A stretch of DNA of 64,000 bases from Enterobacteria phage GiZh, in sequence record NC_054903.1. The stretch is one strand, 5' to 3'. The translations under genes and the position numbers were made by a program. Shown piece by piece: positions 1,607 to 64,000 of the stretch. The notes below the pieces were generated by a model. The model had not been told where the DNA came from. It searched no databases and saw only the letters and a program-made list of their open reading frames with translations. Every line of letters begins with the position of its first letter. Positions within the stretch are counted from its first letter, which is position 1.

Positions 1607-2064
1607 TCAGCCTTATATTCAATAACAGGACATACTTTAGCTTTACGCGCTTTTAAAAATTCGACGATAACCGATTTCTTGGGTTGAATAGGAGGTAAAC
1701 CTTTATACGCCCTATCAATATTTTCTACGTGTAAAGCATAATCCTTTTTCCATTTATAATCTTTATATTTTTCACGCAAATGTGCAGGAATAACAAATGA
1801 ACCGATAATAAGTAAAACAACCAAAAGCGCAAGTATAAATGCCGATGGAAGAAGAGTCCATAAACTACCGAAAATAAGCCAACGTTGTAGGCTTTCTGCA
1901 CAAATAATTGTTAGCCCTACGAGTATAGCACATCCAAAAATAGAAACGAAAAATGTAGGAATGGCAATAGACCAAAAATATGCGCATAGTGTCTTAGGTC
2001 GTTGCCATTCATCGTTAAACAATTTGAATAATTTATAATGCCAAGAGTTTTCATTAATAATCAT
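1603..2064 (-). CDS. hypothetical membrane protein
   Basis: 153 aa ORF with hydrophobic helices; 4-nt overlap with downstream gene suggests coupling. Confidence 0.5.
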   Translation of the reverse strand: MIINENSWHYKLFKLFNDEWQRPKTLCAYFWSIAIPTFFVSIFGCAILVGLTIICAESLQRWLIFGSLWTLLPSAFILALLVVLLIIGSFVIPAHLREKYKDYKWKKDYALHVENIDRAYKGLPPIQPKKSVIVEFLKARKAKVCPVIEYKAE

Positions 2065-2066
2065 AA

Positions 2067-2588
2067 TTATCCTTTCATTGAAGGTGTAACAGTTGTTAAA
2101 TACTTAATCATAGCCTCAGCTTCTGATTTTGATAGTGAAATTTCTTCACCGTTTTGGCGAATAGAAACAAAATCTGGATGACGATCACCACCAGCTTTTA
2201 AAACACACATATAAGTATCAGCTTCGCCTTCAATATTTGAAATGATTGAAGCAGTTCCACACGAATGTGGTTTTTGATAAATCAATACAGCTTTTCTTCC
2301 ACCATTTGACTGTTCATAGGCTTTTAATACATCAAACAAATCAGTTCTTTTATCAATAGCTAAAATGTTATTTTCATCTTCAATGTTAAATCCTTCGGAT
2401 ACTTCATAAAGCGTTACCCATAAATCACCAATGTCAATAACAGCATTTACTTTTCCACGGCTTTCAAGAGTATGACAAATTTTCTTGATTTCGTCATAAC
2501 TCATTTTAATAATATCATCTCCTTGAATAAGAAAGATGTCATTTTTAAATTCAACACGAATTAAACCACTTTCACTTGAAATAAACAT
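2067..2588 (-). CDS. hypothetical protein, member of a tandem paralog family
   Basis: 173 aa ORF; C-terminus EAEAMIKYLTTVTPSM resembles that of the next ORF. Confidence 0.5.
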   Translation of the reverse strand: MFISSESGLIRVEFKNDIFLIQGDDIIKMSYDEIKKICHTLESRGKVNAVIDIGDLWVTLYEVSEGFNIEDENNILAIDKRTDLFDVLKAYEQSNGGRKAVLIYQKPHSCGTASIISNIEGEADTYMCVLKAGGDRHPDFVSIRQNGEEISLSKSEAEAMIKYLTTVTPSMKG

Positions 2589-2594
2589 ATTTCC

Positions 2595-2906
2595 TCACTT
2601 TGAAATCATAGTTGGAATGACAGAATCAAGATAAGTCTTTAGTGCAATAGCTTCGTCTTTGGTAAATGTGACAATATGTGCTCGAGAATCATCATTTTGG
2701 CGAACAAGTACGACATCGCCATCTTCATAAGAAGTCTTGACATCCAAAGTCGTAGTATAGTTTGCAGCTACTGGATTAATAATGTTAGCACCGCGATCTT
2801 TAGCCCATTGAAGTTTAGCCTTTTCGGGTGTTTCGGCTGTTTCAGATTCTAAGAATTCTTTCACCTTGGCAACGAATGTTGCCCAATTGTTGATAGAAAG
2901 ACACAT
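2595..2906 (-). CDS. hypothetical protein, tandem paralog (start placed at internal Met MCLSINNW)
   Basis: ORF 2595..2966 in track; start trimmed to avoid 56-nt overlap; C-terminus DEAIALKTYLDSVIPTM. Confidence 0.45.
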   Translation of the reverse strand: MCLSINNWATFVAKVKEFLESETAETPEKAKLQWAKDRGANIINPVAANYTTTLDVKTSYEDGDVVLVRQNDDSRAHIVTFTKDEAIALKTYLDSVIPTMISK

Positions 2907-2910
2907 AAAT

Positions 2911-3150
2911 TCAGTTTCNAATATTACCGCCGTAAAGGCCACGATAAAAACGAACTTGGAGGTCACCTGTAATATTAGTTACACCGGTAACTCCTGAGGG
3001 AGCATAAGATAAAATCGCAGCCAGTTCCATAGGAAGAATAGTAATACTATCGTCTTCCTGCGTCAGAACGTATACATTACCGCGTTTTTCGATAACTAGG
3101 TCACCGAACAAATCAGTTGTTTCAATTACAGCTTTCATATTATTTACCAA
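2911..3150 (-). CDS. hypothetical small protein, tandem paralog; contains ambiguous base
   Basis: 79 aa ORF; motif QEDDSITILPMELAAILSY resembles neighbours; N at 2920 gives one X codon. Confidence 0.4.
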   Translation of the reverse strand: MVNNMKAVIETTDLFGDLVIEKRGNVYVLTQEDDSITILPMELAAILSYAPSGVTGVTNITGDLQVRFYRGLYGGNIXN

Positions 3151-3325
3151 TTAAAGTTTCAATATAAGAATCAAGATTTACTTTAGCTTCTTCCATAAGA
3201 GTTTTGTATTTAATCTTGTTAGCATGTCCGGAGAAAGCTGATTCATCAATAATTGTTGATGTATGAACAGCTTTACTATACGTCTCAATTAATTCTCTTA
3301 ATTTAAAAGCCTGCTCACTTGTCAT
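3140..3325 (-). CDS. small helical hypothetical protein
   Basis: 61 aa ORF in track. Confidence 0.4.
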   Translation of the reverse strand: MTSEQAFKLRELIETYSKAVHTSTIIDESAFSGHANKIKYKTLMEEAKVNLDSYIETLIGK

Positions 3326-3489
3326 TACATACTCCTCTGAATCATATCAATAATGTTGTTTACCAAATTATAAGTAAACATTGGGTAATTATATTGAATC
3401 ATCACATACACAACAAACAAAACTTTCATTCTCTTCTCCTTGGCAGTTGACAAGATTACTATACCATAACCTTGCCAACTTGTAAACCA

Positions 3490-3663
3490 TTAAATGACGT
3501 TTTCAATAAAATTCTGAAGCTTTGTGTGAGCATCAACCATGATTTTCATTTCTTCTTTGGCGAAAGCTGTACCTCTTTCCCGAGCAGAATACTCATAGTC
3601 AGAAACTGCATTAGCATATTCTTCAATTAGCTTCATTAAAAACATCTGCTTTTCAGTTTTCAT
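3490..3663 (-). CDS. small helical hypothetical protein (below ORF-track cutoff)
   Basis: Hand-translated 57 aa ORF MKTEKQMFLMKLIEEYANAV..., similar in composition to neighbouring small ORFs. Confidence 0.3.
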   Translation of the reverse strand: MKTEKQMFLMKLIEEYANAVSDYEYSARERGTAFAKEEMKIMVDAHTKLQNFIENVI

Positions 3664-3847
3664 TATTCCACCTAATCATTTCAAGATATTGAACTAATTT
3701 AGCTTTAGATTTGTCCAAATCCTTTTTAGCTGCTTCTATACCGTCGTATGAATATCCTTCACAATGCTCAACTGCTAATTGGTATGAATCTATTTCAATA
3801 TCATGCGCTAATTTAATGATTTTTTCAAACTGTTCGCGTGTTAGCAT
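3653..3847 (-). CDS. small helical hypothetical protein
   Basis: 64 aa ORF in track. Confidence 0.4.
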   Translation of the reverse strand: MLTREQFEKIIKLAHDIEIDSYQLAVEHCEGYSYDGIEAAKKDLDKSKAKLVQYLEMIRWNNEN

Positions 3848-3849
3848 AA

Positions 3850-4053
3850 TTAAACTCTCGTATTATGATCGATAATTTCATCAAGAAACATATCTAACGC
3901 TTCTAAAGCATTATCAACTTTAGCTTCAAGTTCATCAATACCTTTATTTGCAATGCCTGACGAAAACCAAGCAAAGTCACTAAGTTCCTCGTCTGCTTTA
4001 CGAATTAAAGCTACCAATTCTTTAATCTTATCCGCTTGCTCTATACTAATCAT
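3850..4053 (-). CDS. small acidic hypothetical protein (start placed at MISIEQADK)
   Basis: ORF 3850..4089 in track; internal ATG at 4053 gives an ATGA overlap with upstream ORF stop. Confidence 0.4.
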   Translation of the reverse strand: MISIEQADKIKELVALIRKADEELSDFAWFSSGIANKGIDELEAKVDNALEALDMFLDEIIDHNTRV

Positions 4054-4286
4054 TATTCCACCACATATGACAGAGAGAATATTGCACACGCCATGTGAGT
4101 TGCAACTTCATCACACATATTATAACGTTTCTTAAGAAATTCTACAAGTTCTTCACTAGTAACTTCATCCATGTCGACGAAAAAATCACCATTAATGATG
4201 ACGTAGATATTTCCTTCTTGATTGAGTGCTTCAATTTTCATGATGTTCTCCTCTTTATCCGATAGTTGTATAGTATCACAGCTCAA
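4053..4286 (-). CDS. small acidic hypothetical protein
   Basis: 77 aa ORF downstream of an early-promoter-like element. Confidence 0.45.
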
Positions 4287-4305
4287 ACGGAAAGTAAACC
4301 GGTAA
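4261..4305 (-). promoter_or_regulatory. early-promoter cassette (PeSL-like)
   Basis: gatagttgtatagtatcac core plus gtaaac at 4294-4299; directly downstream of terminator 4308-4331. Confidence 0.5.
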
Positions 4306-4307
4306 AA

Positions 4308-4331
4308 TGAAAAAAGTCTCCCGAAGGAGAC
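4308..4331 (-). terminator. intrinsic terminator
   Basis: Hairpin GTCTCC-CGAA-GGAGAC plus U-run on minus strand. Confidence 0.65.
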
Positions 4332-4336
4332 TAATG

Positions 4337-4723
4337 TTATTCGAGGGAAAGAAGATACTTACTCTGGTAAAACATTCCAGTAATATCATCTATCGTGCTT
4401 TGGATGGCTGGAGGCATTTCTTTATAAATGCTGTTAGATTGGTCTAGTATGTGATCAATCATTTTAATTGTGTCGGTAGGAAGTTTACTGGCATCTGGAA
4501 TTGAAGGCGTGTATTTTCTACCAGAATACCCCAAATATTGCTCACCAAATTTATCAATCAAATCTGGCAACTCGGAGAAAATAAAATCGTATGCTTTGTG
4601 TCTAGCATAACTTTTAGTTTCAAAATGTGCAGAATGAAAATAAGCTTGTGCAGCCATTAATAAACCTAAGTATTCATCTGCCTTTGAAGGTTTTCCACTT
4701 TGTGAAAAGTCGCTGAATTTCAT
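4337..4723 (-). CDS. hypothetical protein at the T4 rI.-1 position
   Basis: 128 aa ORF immediately downstream of rI, overlapping its stop. Confidence 0.6.
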
Positions 4724-5013
4724 TCAGTCTCCAATTTAATGTTCATAATTCTAGCGTATGATTGTGCCATCTCCGCGCCTCGTTCTATACATTCAAAATC
4801 AGAAGAGCACGGGTCATTTTTATAGGTCGTTCTCATAAAACTATAGAATTGTTCAGACGATTCTACGCTTTTATTTTCAAAAAGTGTATAAACGTGCCTA
4901 ATACCAGATTCCATAAATTTATCAAAATGAGGATCGACATTCGCTTCAATCGATGGAGATAAAACAAATGACAATCCTAGCATGGCAAAAAGTGCCGTTG
5001 CTTTTAAGGCCAT
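4720..5013 (-). CDS. rI: lysis inhibition regulator rI
   Basis: 97 aa; MALKATALFAMLGLSFVLSPSIEA... matches T4 RI as recalled; N-terminal signal-anchor. Confidence 0.85.
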   Translation of the reverse strand: MALKATALFAMLGLSFVLSPSIEANVDPHFDKFMESGIRHVYTLFENKSVESSEQFYSFMRTTYKNDPCSSDFECIERGAEMAQSYARIMNIKLETE

Positions 5014-5025
5014 AAAGGCCTCCTA

Positions 5026-5238
5026 TCATTTTTGTCCTGTATTTACTTTATGCCGATGCACGGCCTTAACTTTATCAAGGTATTTTTCAAAATTTCGCAA
5101 TCTAGTATAGTCTGCCGGAGATTGGTTGAGTGATACTTCTCGACGCAAAGCTGAAATGATATTTCCAACTTCCCTACGAATTTCATCTAATTGAAGAACA
5201 GTAAGATTGCGAAGTTGCTTTTCAGTTAATTGTAGCAT
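5026..5238 (-). CDS. hypothetical protein at the T4 rI.1 position
   Basis: 70 aa ORF between tk and rI. Confidence 0.55.
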
Positions 5239-5280
5239 ATATACCCCTTTAGTTAGATAAACCTATTTATAACTTTTGCA

Positions 5281-5862
5281 CTAACCGAGCTTTTTAGTTA
5301 ATTCATTCCAATGTTTTCTGCACAAAGAAACATAAATTTCATCACCAATACAGATTTGATTACCTTCTTTAACTGGTGTTCCATCTTCCATTAATCGAGC
5401 TGTCATAATCGCTTTTTTGCCGCAATGACAAACTGCCTTTAGTTCAATAAGTTTATCTGCAATCGCTAAAAGTTCTTTAGAACCTTCAAACAATTTTCCA
5501 GCGAAATCAGTCCTTAATCCATAAGCCATAACAGGAACATTATATGTATCAACAATTCGGCTCAATTGATGCACCTGTTCAGTTTTTAAAAACTGAGCTT
5601 CATCTACAAATACGCAATGAATATCTTTTTGTGCTTCAGCCCATTTATAGAACTCGAAAATATCCATATCATCTGTAATAATATTCGCTTCCTGTTTAAT
5701 TCCAATGCGAGAAACAACTTCACAGACAGAATCGCGAGTATCAATAGCAGGCTTAAGAACTAATACACTCATTCCACGTTCTTTATAATTATGTGCAGCA
5801 GTCAAAAGAGAAGCAGATTTTCCAGCATTCATTGCTGCATAAGTAAAAATTAAACTCGCCAT
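5281..5862 (-). CDS. tk: thymidine kinase
   Basis: 193 aa; P-loop AAMNAGKSASLL; length and sequence consistent with T4 Tk. Confidence 0.9.
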   Translation of the reverse strand: MASLIFTYAAMNAGKSASLLTAAHNYKERGMSVLVLKPAIDTRDSVCEVVSRIGIKQEANIITDDMDIFEFYKWAEAQKDIHCVFVDEAQFLKTEQVHQLSRIVDTYNVPVMAYGLRTDFAGKLFEGSKELLAIADKLIELKAVCHCGKKAIMTARLMEDGTPVKEGNQICIGDEIYVSLCRKHWNELTKKLG

Positions 5863-5871
5863 ATCACCTTC

Positions 5872-6057
5872 TTAAAGCGTATTCACATAAGCTATTAATT
5901 CATTTTCTTTCTTATCAAACCGATCAGCAAATTCTTCCTGCTGTTCTGGAGATAGCGGGCCGTATTCATCATAAAAGGTGTTTGCTTCTATATGCTCATC
6001 TAGAAGTTCATGGATAAGCTCAAACAATTTATCTTTTTGTTCTTTGCTTAGACTCAC
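5872..6057 (-). CDS. small acidic hypothetical protein
   Basis: 61 aa ORF directly upstream of tk. Confidence 0.45.
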   Translation of the reverse strand: MSLSKEQKDKLFELIHELLDEHIEANTFYDEYGPLSPEQQEEFADRFDKKENELIAYVNTL

Positions 6058-6226
6058 AGTATGTCAATCCCCAAAAGTTTTAAAATGACTCGTTTCTGAT
6101 TCATAACCGCTACGATTGAATGACCGTTGGGGTCTTTTTGACCTGATCCAATTATAAATCCTTTTTGCGCAGAAAGTTCAATCAAAACATCAAGTTCACG
6201 TAATAATTGATATTTTAAATCATCAT

Positions 6227-6454
6227 TCATTTTGGTTTACCTTCTTTAACGAAATCAGGATAAGGATAAAATCCTGAATAAAATCCTTCACCTTTATGAT
6301 TGATGCATCCTTTATTAGAACAATAGCACCAATAATCGAAATCACAAGCCATTTCATCGTTGCATAAAGCAAAAACAACCGGCCACTTACACTTTTCACA
6401 GTGGGCATTTTTAAGAATACTAGTTTGGCTCATAACCATGTAACCTTTAAGCAA
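6227..6454 (-). CDS. Cys-rich small protein (possible metal-binding)
   Basis: 75 aa with 8 Cys including CEKC and CYC pairs. Confidence 0.45.
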   Translation of the reverse strand: MLKGYMVMSQTSILKNAHCEKCKWPVVFALCNDEMACDFDYWCYCSNKGCINHKGEGFYSGFYPYPDFVKEGKPK

Positions 6455-6642
6455 TATTCTTCTACATGTTGTTTACGACCTTTCTTATCAATAAAGGTAT
6501 ATTCAACGAATGTTCCAATGTAGTCTTTATCTACATCATGTGGACTATTAATTGGACATTTAGTACGGCAAATGCGTTCCCATTGACGAATAATTACTGC
6601 TTTGTTTTTAGGATCAAACGGATGCGGGTAATGTACTTTCAT
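6430..6642 (-). CDS. hypothetical protein
   Basis: 70 aa ORF in track. Confidence 0.45.
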   Translation of the reverse strand: MKVHYPHPFDPKNKAVIIRQWERICRTKCPINSPHDVDKDYIGTFVEYTFIDKKGRKQHVEEYCLKVTWL

Positions 6643-7093
6643 AATCCACCACTATTAAATCAATATCAGGAGTAAACATGTCGATTAATTTAGAAACCTT
6701 ATCCCAATCGCCGCCAGCAATACCACAACCTATGCGTGGAATGTAAATTACCGGTTTAAACAAAAGGGTTTCTGCCTGTAGATTTAATTCTATCATGCAG
6801 TTTACTAAAGCACCATAATCAAGATTAGGACCTGGTTCGTATTGCGTATACAAGTTATAACATATGCCAAAACCATTAGGTTTATGTTTAAAAACAATAG
6901 ACATATCGCCTAATTTATCACGAGAACCGTACTCAGTAGTGGTTTTATCTATTTCTAAAATTTTGGGATAGGCTCTTGCTAATTGACCCGCTACACCTGA
7001 ACCCATAGTATGAAAACAATTGCACCCGTGCGCAATAATATTACCTTGAAGAAATAGGGCGACAATATCGCCCTTGATATATTTTGCAATCAT
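6614..7093 (-). CDS. macro-domain protein (ADP-ribose binding/hydrolase fold)
   Basis: 159 aa; GDIVALFLQGNIIAHGCNCFHTMGSGVAGQLA and PRIGCGIAGGDW resemble macro-domain Gly-rich loops. Confidence 0.6.
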   Translation of the reverse strand: MIAKYIKGDIVALFLQGNIIAHGCNCFHTMGSGVAGQLARAYPKILEIDKTTTEYGSRDKLGDMSIVFKHKPNGFGICYNLYTQYEPGPNLDYGALVNCMIELNLQAETLLFKPVIYIPRIGCGIAGGDWDKVSKLIDMFTPDIDLIVVDYESTLPASV

Positions 7094-62350: not shown

Positions 62351-64000
62351 AAAAGCCACAAGAAATGCAAACGATGCGTAGAAAAGTTATTTCAGATAAT
62401 AAACCAACACAGGAAGCGGCTAAATCCGCTTCCAACACTTTATCTGGACTTAATGATATATCTACGAAATTGGATGATGCTCAAGCTGCTTCTGAATTAA
62501 TAGCTCAAACTGTCGAAGAAAAATCGAATGAAATAGTTGGAGCAATTGGTAACGTAGAAAGCGCAGTGAGTGATACTACTGCTGGTTCTGAGTTAATTGC
62601 TGAAACTGTCGAAATTGGCAACAATATTAATAAAGAAATCGGTGAATCACTCGGAAGCAAATTAGATAAATTAACAAGTTTACTAGAGCAAAAAATCCAG
62701 ACAGCTGGAATTCAACAAACAGGAACTAGTTTAGCTACGGTTGAAAGCGCTATTCCCGTTAAAGTCGTTGAGGATGATACTGCTGAATCTGTGGGTCCTT
62801 TATTACCAGCTCCTGAAGCAGTTAATAATGATCCTGACGCTGATTTTTTCCCTACCCCTCAGCCAGTTGAGCCAAAGCAAGAATCACCAGAAGAAAAACA
62901 GAAAAAAGAAGCATTTAACTTAAAATTATCTCAAGCTTTAGATAAATTAACAAAGACAGTTGATTTTGGATTTAAGAAATCCATTTCAATTACTGATAAA
63001 ATATCAAGCATGCTATTTAAGTATACCGTCAGTGCTGCTATTGAAGCTGCTAAAATGACTGCAATGATATTGGCTGTTGTTGTTGGAATAGACCTGTTGA
63101 TGGTTCATTTTAAATACTGGTCAGATAAATTTTCAAAAGCCTGGGATTTATTTAATACTGACTTTACTAAATTCTCTAGCGAAACCGGAACATGGGGTCC
63201 TTTATTACAGAGCATCTTTGATTCTATTGATAAAATTAAACAACTTTGGGAAGCGGGAGATTGGGGTGGATTGACAGCAGCTATTGTTGAAGGACTCGGA
63301 AGTGTTCTTTTTAATTTAGGTGAACTTATTCAATTAGGTATGGCTAAATTATCTGCAGCAATTCTTCGAGTCATTCCTGGTATGAAGGATACTGCTGATG
63401 AAGTAGAAGGAAGAGCATTAGAAAATTTCCAAAATTCTACTGGAGCATCTCTCAATAAAGAAGACCAGGAAAAAGTTGCAAATTATCAAGATAAACGAAT
63501 GAATGGAGACCTTGGTCCGATAGCAAAAGGATTAGATAAAATTGCTAATTGGAAAACTCGTGCATCTAATTGGATTCGTGGGGTTGATAATAAAGAAGCA
63601 CTAACTACCGACGAAGAACGCGCAGCAGAAGAAGAAAAATTAAAGCAACTTTCACCTGAAGAAAGAAAAAATGCTTTAATGAAGGCTAATGAAGCCCGTG
63701 CCGCAATGATTCGCTTTGAAAAATATGCTGATTCAGCTGATATGAGTAAAGACTCAACGGTTAAATCTGTTGAATCTGCCTATGAAGACCTTAAAAAACG
63801 GATGGATGACCCGGATTTAAATAATTCACCGGCGGTTAAAAAAAAANTTGCTGCTAGATTTTNTTAAAANTNATGCTACTTATCAAAAGCTCAAGAAGAA
63901 NCAGCCTAATGCCAAANCTGAAANTTCTGCTAAAACGCCAGAAGCAAAANAAANCCAGGGAATAGAAAAAAAAAAAGCACAGCAAGCTCCTGTTCAACAA
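62347..64000 (+). CDS. 29: tail tube length determinant gp29 (partial; 3' end beyond window)
   Basis: ORF open to window end; track stops at 63867 only because of ambiguous bases. Confidence 0.85.

Follow-up and report, generated by a model that had tools for sequence, protein, structure and literature searches.

Five of the six small ORFs analysed on the minus strand of the window (64,000 nucleotides of Enterobacteria phage GiZh, NC_054903.1) are, judged by sequence profiles, true paralogues of one phage-specific family, Pfam PF24219 (DUF7438). The family itself is not new, as it has already been curated in Pfam (PF24219) and in PHROGs 653, 4859 and 2758; in T4 its members are MobD.2a, MobD.3, MobD.4, Tk.1 and Tk.2. 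The outcome is mainly a tidying-up, in which a catalogued family is found to be real, one ORF is excluded from it, and two widespread database labels are left unsupported. As for what these proteins do, we tentatively favour, as the best joint explanation, that they are helical hairpins acting as stoichiometric binders and exchanged as cassettes between phages.

Family membership in the mobD and tk region

The window belongs to a Tequatrovirus and presents 99.4% identity to Shigella phage Sf22 in the region tested. The set of small ORFs spans the region of T4 mobD.2–mobD.5 and tk.1/tk.2, and all six ORFs reported by the first-pass annotation are present on the minus strand where it had placed them; they are named o1 to o6 in coordinate order (Table 1). 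Some of the starts deserve a comment. The ORF 4053-4286 begins at a TTG without a Shine-Dalgarno sequence, while the ATG at 4241 is preceded by AAAGAGGAGAAC and gives a product of the length of T4 MobD.5; this ATG is more likely than the TTG at 4286 to be the real start of o5. For o4, a GTG at 4089 was considered and rejected, the ATG at 4053 being the correct start. The protein of o6 has no internal Met, and therefore the GTG at 6057 is its only possible start. Next to o1 there is also a small ORF whose product is near-identical to T4 MobD.2.

Table 1. Features of the mobD and tk region of the GiZh window, with family assignments made by profile
Feature	Coordinates	Strand	Length (aa)	Net charge	pI	Description
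o1	3140..3325	(-)	61	-1	6.06	DUF7438 paralogue; subfamily phrog_4859
MobD.2-like ORF	3325..3429	(-)	34			Hydrophobic; outside DUF7438; annotated in Sf22
Early promoter (predicted)	3458..3486	(-)				TTTACA-17-TATAGT, extended -10 TG
o2	3490..3663	(-)	57	-2	5.27	DUF7438 paralogue; phrog_2758
o3	3653..3847	(-)	64	-4	5.02	DUF7438 paralogue; phrog_653; T4 MobD.3 orthologue
o4	3850..4053	(-)	67	-9	4.27	DUF7438 paralogue; phrog_653; T4 MobD.4 orthologue
o5	4053..4241 (first-pass annotation: 4053-4286)	(-)	62	-8	4.28	MobD.5 homologue; phrog_3024 only
Terminator hairpin and early-promoter-like site	4270..4332	(-)				Upstream of the o5-o4-o3-o2 operon
o6	5872..6057	(-)	61	-10	4.34	DUF7438 paralogue; phrog_653; T4 tk.2 position

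The first-pass annotation had grouped the six ORFs in a single family, and this grouping holds for o1–o4 and o6 and fails for o5. In the Pfam scan the five members matched DUF7438 with 57.8 (o1), 59.8 (o2), 66.5 (o3), 57.0 (o4) and 69.5 bits (o6), the gathering score being 25 bits, with E-values from 1e-15 to 3e-19 and matches that cover profile positions 1-57 or nearly so. Among the PHROGs, o1 matched phrog_4859 (8e-39), with cross-matches to phrog_653 and phrog_2758, and o2 matched phrog_2758 (3e-35); independent PHROG profiles cross-match family members with E from 7e-6 to 1.4e-3. Pairwise hhalign comparisons among the narrow subfamily profiles were weak (P-values 6e-5 to 0.7), too weak to decide alone, and for this reason we used instead a leave-one-subfamily-out test, in which the profile is built without the subfamily of the ORF under evaluation and the score is compared with 2000 composition-matched shuffles. 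The five members obtained 20.8-35.8 bits (34.1 for o1, 20.8 for o2 and 35.8 for o4), the best of the shuffles reached at most 13.2, and neighbouring small helical proteins taken as controls gave about 0-2 bits. That the likeness is purely compositional, a product of short, helical, Glu/Lys/Leu-rich ORFs with no genuine family behind them, could be argued from the weak hhalign values and from some Smith-Waterman pairs that score no better than shuffles (e.g. o2 against o3, o4 and o6), but this explanation is refuted for the five ORFs by the leave-one-out test, the Pfam matches and PHROG cross-matches run full length with the conserved positions in register on the hairpin core, and it holds only for ORF 4053-4286.

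This outlier, o5, is unrelated to DUF7438 and has a different fold. It presented no DUF7438 match in Pfam, an hhalign probability of 0.2% and about 1 bit in the leave-one-out test, and it carries none of the shared family motifs. AlphaFold2 gives it three strands and two helices (pLDDT 90), and a fold search with this model gave no match. Two other candidates that looked family-like by eye, rI.1 (5026-5238) and the ORF 6054-6230, were rejected with scores of about 0-2 bits, and when the family HMMs were run on every ORF of the 64-kb window, in six frames, no members beyond the five appeared. At the DNA level no similarity between the paralogues was found except for the ribosome-binding site and start motif GGTGGAATAATGA at o2 and o4; in the absence of DNA-level repeats, the duplications are therefore old.

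Two labels carried by these proteins in the databases were also evaluated. Phrog_4859 and RefSeq name the o1 type "helicase loader". The helicase loader of T4, gp59, has about 217 aa; o1 has only 61 aa, and no helicase-loader domain was present among its Pfam matches at E up to 1. On the basis of length and of the Pfam scan we rejected a gp59-type identity, and the label seems to have been carried over by mistaken annotation transfer. In RefSeq, the MobD.4- and MobD.5-type proteins are labelled [quoted passage not shown]. This identity was rejected as well for o4 and o5, which are 62-67 aa long and showed no match to the MobA nucleotidyltransferase or to the MobB P-loop in Pfam and NCBIfam; the label appears to mix up T4 mobD, a mobile endonuclease gene, with the bacterial mob genes.

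A predicted hairpin core with divergent surfaces

The proteins had been described as acidic and helical, with two shared sequence patterns. Of the five family members only o3, o4 and o6 are strongly acidic (net charge -4 to -10), o1 and o2 being nearly neutral. The helical description stands for o1, whose AlphaFold2 model is an antiparallel two-helix hairpin (H3-25 and H31-60, pLDDT 87.9), and by homology for the other four members, but not for o5. For o2, o3, o4 and o6 we infer the same hairpin from homology and from the in-register conservation of the heptad core. With respect to the patterns, E-x-Y-x-x-A-V occurs in o1 and o2 alone, with a D-x-Y version in o3, and near the C-terminus L-x-x-[YF]-[LIV] is found in the five ORFs; o5 lacks both. 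An N-terminal S/T-x-E-Q...[LI]-x-x-L-[IV] is common to the five as well.

Hydrophobic residues occupy the same column in four or more of the five paralogues at, in o1 numbering, L9, L12, I13, Y16, A19, I26, Y40, M44, L51, Y54, I55 and L58, in addition to the start Met, and these columns are mostly 3-4 residues apart. Beyond this hydrophobic heptad core and the N-terminal S/T-x-E-Q cap the paralogues have little in common: column identity averages 0.89 within a paralogue, against a between-paralogue agreement of 0.44, and the surface positions are conserved inside each paralogue and divergent across paralogues. Fold searches in PDB and BFVD retrieved only generic hairpins and family members, the latter including proteins of phages MX01 and VR25 (TM about 0.86 to o1 in BFVD), and the search of solved structures by sequence gave no significant match. 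The two-helix hairpin is, in itself, a generic fold.

Early operons, selection and variation among phages

The family genes sit in early operons, that is, in translationally coupled strings behind predicted early promoters. The coupling proposed for several of these ORFs was borne out: o5 and o4 overlap in TAATG, the gap between o4 and o3 is 2 nt, and o3 and o2 overlap by 11 nt. Furthermore, the MobD.2-like ORF and o1 overlap in TAATG, and the ORF 6054-6230 and o6 in GTGA. The promoter at 3486-3458 was the top site in the promoter scan (10/12 matches plus the extended -10) and would feed the MobD.2-like ORF, o1 and the MobD.1-like gene; by alignment coordinate transfer it maps to the T4 early promoter Pe57954, as named in PMC6024815. 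Upstream of the o5-o4-o3-o2 operon, the scan found a terminator hairpin (4332-4315), followed by a promoter-like site (GTTTAC 4299-4294 and TGaTACTAT ending at 4270; 8/12 plus the extended -10) that was read by eye and lies below the scan threshold. Together, both elements resemble a PeSL cassette, a concept taken from PMC4122927.

The proposal that these are small early proteins is supported by assay data that are those of T4, whose orthologues are early at the RNA level and have been detected as proteins (PMC9697503). An early RNA class and a measured protein time course are available there for MobD.3, MobD.4, Tk.1 and Tk.2 (supplementary files 4 and 6); MobD.3 and MobD.4 are early both as RNA and as protein, and Tk.2 is early as RNA but middle as protein. 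With the promoter at 3486-3458 and the early RNA of the T4 orthologues, the members fit the early-gene class of T4, a class defined by sigma-70 early promoters and by RNA that appears early in infection. Regarding selection, dN/dS between orthologues ranged from 0 to 0.5 for every paralogue, with comparisons that showed zero nonsynonymous changes at pS 0.08-0.13. For o3 the value against T4 MobD.3, at 98% identity, was 0.05; for o4 it was 0.26 against T4, with zero nonsynonymous changes at pS 0.13 against Bas44; and for o6 it was 0.22-0.47. On the dN/dS values and the T4 RNA and protein data, the five family ORFs are real genes. In laboratory E. coli, CRISPRi-ART knockdown of each T4 member was scored "Not Fit", i.e. 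with no fitness effect (PMC11879866, supplementary file 15), and the T4 members are individually dispensable in that host.

Annotated proteins of Sf22, Bas44 and other phages of the genus Tequatrovirus share 98-100% identity with the five of GiZh. GiZh and T4 carry family members at the same two genomic positions and differ in their content: T4 has no o1-type copy; o2 is intact in GiZh, whereas the T4 copy, mobD.2a, is frameshifted and split into two frames; and beside tk there is one copy in GiZh (o6) instead of the Tk.1 and Tk.2 pair. Both o1 and o6 lie inside segments replaced relative to T4, with the breakpoints at gene borders. The o6 protein corresponds to the RB68-type allele at the tk.2 position and is 53% identical to T4 Tk.2; tblastn retrieved the o6 type from 726 phage records, which fall into two allele classes. 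The two alleles of this position are very divergent, about 55% identical, in phages that share an adjacent mobD-tk segment with about 97% identity. Among the seven T4-type phages compared (GiZh included), the copy number varied from 3 to 5 with differing sets of members, and tk, rI and the mobD.1 homologue were present at all the loci compared. In Tequatrovirus, Mosigvirus and Gaprivervirus alike, the family is found beside tk and beside mobD.1, and each paralogue is conserved across genera with 34-80% amino-acid identity. In an exhaustive profile search of 1.84 billion proteins, no more than 25 clusters (50% identity) were retrieved. All the named members and loci examined are of phages, and some members were located on unrelated phage contigs, where neighbours of the tk, rI and mobD.1 type were not called nearby.

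Possible functions of the hairpins

In the explanation that we tentatively prefer, the small hairpin would bury its hydrophobic stripe, either against a second hairpin, in a Rop-like four-helix bundle, or against a target helix that it clamps. Each paralogue would probably bind a host protein of its own in a stoichiometric manner, be it a takeover target or a component of an anti-phage defence, and the paralogues would be swapped as cassettes between related phages. A mechanism of charge mimicry shared by all of them is excluded, since o1 and o2 are nearly neutral. It is possible, and rather more doubtful, that DUF7438 constitutes a diversifying inhibitor toolkit based on the helical hairpin, in which homo- or heterodimer bundles with variant surfaces would neutralise different host factors, e.g. 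variants of a housekeeping enzyme or of a defence system, and the alleles would be swapped to match the hosts; under this toolkit reading, an arms race would have left its marks in the strong divergence between the two tk.2-position alleles and in the variation in copy number.

The hairpins could instead serve phage proteins, as adaptors or regulators of the thymidine kinase, of the RI lysis-inhibition proteins or of the MobD.1/y05I-like putative transcription factor, or as phage-internal heterodimers. Tight translational coupling, common for interacting partners, and the conservation of the two positions by tk and mobD.1 in three genera are in agreement with this idea. We consider it unlikely, given that tk, rI and the mobD.1 homologue are never missing from the T4-type loci compared, in which the paralogues differ in number and identity, that T4 is fully viable without o1 and with a frameshifted remnant of o2, and that members exist on unrelated phage contigs without such neighbours being called nearby.

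Quite unlikely, in our opinion, is that the hyperplastic region carries these genes as evolutionary passengers, duplicated and shuffled by recombination at promoter-terminator cassettes and with little or no present fitness value. Such a view would account for the knockdowns without effect in T4, for the tolerance of T4 to the mobD.2a frameshift, for the cassette-like replacement relative to T4 and for the PeSL-like element upstream. Against it stand the dN/dS values and the comparisons with zero nonsynonymous changes, the conservation of the paralogues across genera, the production of the proteins in T4, and the retention of the o6 type alone in so many phage records.

A role as nucleic-acid binders, in which Rop-like four-helix-bundle dimers would recognise e.g. 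pairs of RNA hairpins and adjust how stable early mRNAs are or how well they are translated, seems very improbable to us. The best PDB match of o1 was ColE1 Rop (TM-score 0.84, rmsd 1.5 Å, nearly equal length), and regB and other early functions directed at RNA are encoded nearby. Rop/Rom is a 63-aa helical hairpin whose dimer is a four-helix bundle that binds RNA, and DUF7438 resembles it in size and predicted fold; nevertheless, there is no sequence relationship between them and most DUF7438 members are acidic. The Foldseek match to Rop was not significant (E 0.83), as was the case for all other PDB entries (E at least 0.8), and the Pfam scan, with matches of E up to 1 allowed, did not list Rop. 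In addition, three of the five members are strongly acidic, a property ill-suited to nucleic-acid binding, and no basic surface residue is conserved across paralogues.

Returning to the binding of host proteins, and to the idea of the first-pass annotation that these may be host-takeover factors directed at host enzymes, the literature searched gave neither a binding partner nor a toxicity result nor a phenotype for the members of the family; full-text searches for mobD.3, mobD.4, mobD.2a and DUF7438, as well as for guessed UniProt-style protein names, gave no match. PADLOC gave no matches, as expected, and NCBIfam no meaningful one. In the HIDEN-SEQ text consulted, the genes named as hits with the defence systems and the clinical isolates of that study are other ones (bioRxiv 10.1101/2025.11.20.689424), and an effect of a member could be hidden there by paralogue redundancy or by hosts outside those tested. 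One gene of that kind, the anti-Druantia bas37_0203, was considered as a member and rejected, as gene order (NrdC.1 being bas37_0196) places it in the nrdC.5-nrdC.8 region. If a target were found, it would provide a function for five "dark-matter" genes of T4 and for hundreds of orthologues in therapeutic T-even phages, as well as a clean case of paralogue diversification on a minimal scaffold.

Several small T4 proteins offer a comparison for the binding of host proteins. Among the ORFans of T4, orphan genes without known homologues, 55.1 binds FolD and UvrA, 55.2 binds topoisomerase I and 39.2 binds GroEL (PMC4396842). According to the preprint mentioned before (bioRxiv 10.1101/2025.11.20.689424), Tk.4 is AdfM, an anti-DarTG2 protein, and NrdC.1, encoded farther along the same variable early region, is anti-Septu. 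In GiZh, the tk.1-tk.4 gene string contains, immediately upstream of o6, a homologue of Tk.4 (6614-7093). The DUF7438 genes are similar to all of these, being small early accessory genes that lie in variable (hyperplastic) regions, that the phage can do without in laboratory strains and that T4-like phages conserve. They differ in that no homology relates them to those genes, and in that DUF7438 is multi-copy whereas the others are annotated as single in T4.

Family membership, ORF boundaries and labels

From the raw sequence, the first-pass annotation had described six small ORFs (o1 to o6, listed in the table) as one family of acidic helical proteins, several of them translationally coupled, and this was largely correct. 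All six ORFs were found in place; one of them lies outside the family, and the family itself was known beforehand, curated in Pfam as DUF7438 and also covered by PHROGs. ORFs o1, o2, o3, o4 and o6 matched Pfam PF24219 (DUF7438) over their full length, scoring 57-70 bits where the cutoff is 25, and the independent profiles phrog_4859, phrog_2758 and phrog_653 cross-hit at E = 7e-6 to 1.4e-3. Since the Pfam match could be circular, each protein was also compared with a profile made from family members <38% identical to it. In this leave-out test the five paralogues scored 20.8-35.8 bits, against <=13.2 for the best of 2000 composition-matched shuffles and ~0-2 bits for three small proteins encoded nearby (o5, rI.1 and ORF 6054-6230), which establishes relatedness beyond composition for these five ORFs. 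Pairwise tests between paralogues were weaker, as expected at 60 aa and 20-30% identity. The 64-kb window holds no further DUF7438 member, and its family proteins are 98-100% identical to deposited ones.

The remaining ORF, o5, was rejected as a member (hhalign probability 0.2%, different fold model) and matches phrog_3024 only. AlphaFold2 confidently predicts three strands plus two helices for it (pLDDT 90), a fold with no significant match in the PDB. Only 10 clusters among 5.8 billion proteins make up its very narrow family. First placed at 4053-4286, o5 almost certainly starts at the ATG at 4241, behind AAAGAGGAGAAC, which gives 62 aa, the same as T4 MobD.5.

With net charges from -1 to -10, the description as acidic fits o4, o5, o6 and, moderately, o3, but not o1 or o2. 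Translational coupling was borne out by the junction sequences. The starts of o2 (3647-3672) and o4 (4037-4062) carry on the coding strand an identical 13-nt ribosome-binding/start motif, GGTGGAATAATGA, the sole DNA-level repeat linking paralogues.

Two database labels lack support from domain evidence: 'helicase loader' for the o1 type (phrog_4859 and RefSeq), and 'molybdopterin-guanine dinucleotide biosynthesis protein MobD' for MobD.4- and MobD.5-type proteins (RefSeq), which looks like a mix-up with the T4 gene name mobD. Flagging both, correcting membership and starts, and the evidence on expression and selection are useful by-products of the analysis.

Gene order, promoters and mosaicism

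Judging by its sequence, the phage is a Tequatrovirus: over 2900-6300 it shares 99.4% identity with Shigella phage Sf22, and matches to this region occur in 582 phage records. Gene order was assigned by comparison with T4 and the Sf22 annotation.

Features of the region in order of transcription (all on the minus strand)
Feature	Position	Net charge	PHROGs	Start or junction
ORF 6054-6230	6054-6230
o6	5872-6057	-10	phrog_653	GTG at 6057, sole possibility; GTGA junction
tk	5281-5862
rI.1
rI
rI.-1	4337-4723
Terminator hairpin	4332-4315
o5 (MobD.5-like)	4053-4241	-8	phrog_3024
o4 (MobD.4)	3850-4053	-9	phrog_653	ATG at 4053; TAATG with o5
o3 (MobD.3)	3653-3847	-4	phrog_653	2-nt gap after o4
o2 (MobD.2a-like)	3490-3663	-2	phrog_2758	11-nt overlap with o3
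Early promoter	3486-3458
MobD.2-like ORF (34 aa)	3325-3429
o1	3140-3325	-1	phrog_4859	TAATG with MobD.2-like ORF
MobD.1-like gene

The early promoter was the top site in the promoter scan and, by coordinate transfer, occupies the position of T4 early promoter Pe57954 (PMC6024815). Upstream of o5 (4270-4332, minus), the terminator hairpin AGTCTCC-TTCG-GGAGACT and its T-run directly precede a weaker early-promoter-like site. By analogy, this arrangement resembles the PeSL cassettes, proposed mediators of such gene shuffling (PMC4122927).

Compared with T4, 3322-5862 is 96.7% identical, and the flanks 1615-3321 (holding o1) and 5863-6428 (holding o6) are replaced by largely unrelated sequence. 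The breakpoints fall exactly at gene borders, 3322 being the o1 start and MobD.2-like stop and 5862 the tk start. At the tk.2 position, 726 records present two allele classes ~55% identical to one another. The window, Sf22 and phage Bas44 carry five copies each; T4 has five of another set, without o1, with o2 frameshifted and with both Tk.1 and Tk.2. Three copies are present in the loci of Gaprivervirus and Mosigvirus.

Among 1.84 billion representative proteins, exhaustive profile searching picked out only 25 DUF7438 clusters; a word-indexed search gave 115 clusters at 90% identity. All named members belong to Straboviridae, subfamily Tevenvirinae (Tequatrovirus, Mosigvirus, Gaprivervirus and phage MX01). 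Two further members, from metagenomes, are surrounded by small genes in unrelated phage contigs, outside T4-like phages: a 129-aa protein of two copies fused in tandem (L004, 4821-5210), on a contig also encoding a DUF5906 protein, and a 70-aa copy (L005, 6001-6213) on a contig with DNA polymerase A, N6/N4 methyltransferase and integrase.

Other observations concern the neighbourhood. An ambiguous base at 2919, one base extra relative to Sf22, breaks the MobD.1/y05I-like gene (2595-3138, minus; Pfam T4_y05I_N and T4_y05I_C, putative transcription factor) into two ORFs that overlap; an error of sequencing or assembly is the likeliest cause, rather than a true frameshift. Nine more ambiguous bases cluster at 63847-63954, near the window end, suggesting low-quality sequence there. 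A Cys-rich 75-aa ORF (6227-6454, minus; CEKCKW...C...C..C.C....C), overlapped by a 61-aa ORF in a different frame, resembles a small zinc-binding protein. Just upstream of o6, at 6614-7093 (minus), lies a homologue of T4 Tk.4, a protein that carries a macro-domain (A1pp) annotation in both Sf22 and T4.

Predicted fold, selection and expression

In the AlphaFold2 model, o1 folds as two antiparallel helices (H3-25 and H31-60) that form a hairpin (pLDDT 87.9). Positions hydrophobic in at least four of the five paralogues (o1 numbering 9, 12, 13, 16, 19, 26 and 40, 44, 51, 54, 55, 58) run, on the predicted structure, along both helices as an a/d heptad stripe. Beyond this stripe the paralogues share no more than E4-Q5 at the N-terminal cap and the motif L-x-x-[YF]-[LIV]. 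Mean column identity is 0.89 within one paralogue, against an agreement of 0.44 between paralogues: the scaffold is probably common to all, and the conserved surface is particular to each.

Orthologue dN/dS was 0-0.5 (0.05 for o3 against T4), and comparison with Bas44 gave zero nonsynonymous changes in o4 (pS 0.13) and o1 (pS 0.08). In T4, MobD.3 and MobD.4 belong to the early-RNA and early-protein classes, Tk.1 and Tk.2 to the early-RNA and middle-protein classes, and no protein class is given for MobD.2a (PMC9697503 supplements). The T4 mobD.2a gene (L001, the T4 locus, 5997-6178), annotated with 38 aa, covers just the N-terminal half of a DUF7438 gene of the o2 type, whose C-terminal half runs on in another frame; this copy is therefore frameshifted, consistent with the absence of detected protein.

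Possible function and precedents

Neither a phenotype nor a partner for DUF7438 proteins was found in the literature searched; mobD.2a, mobD.3, mobD.4, tk.1 and tk.2 were all "Not Fit" (no fitness effect) in CRISPRi-ART (PMC11879866 supplementary file 15), and structural searches with the hairpin gave nothing beyond generic hairpins. For these reasons the mechanism is one that we infer. The hydrophobic stripe would be buried when the hairpins dimerise or clamp a target helix, and each paralogue would bind a separate host protein, for host takeover or counter-defence, a proposal we hold tentatively. That the hairpins are instead adaptors of phage proteins is unlikely; slightly less likely still, the genes would be near-neutral passengers, which the purifying selection contradicts. 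Rop was the top structural match (TM 0.84, E-value 0.8), and Rop-like nucleic-acid binding is improbable, being contradicted by the charge. A family resemblance due to composition, refuted for five ORFs, is hardly credible.

The proposed binding of host proteins has neighbours and precedents in T4. In the accessible part of the 2025 HIDEN-SEQ preprint, whose text there does not name DUF7438 genes, T4 tk.4 is identified as AdfM, an anti-DarTG2 factor, and nrdC.1, further along the same variable region, is assigned an anti-Septu role (bioRxiv 10.1101/2025.11.20.689424). The precedents are T4 55.1, 55.2 and 39.2, ORFans that bind host proteins (PMC4396842).
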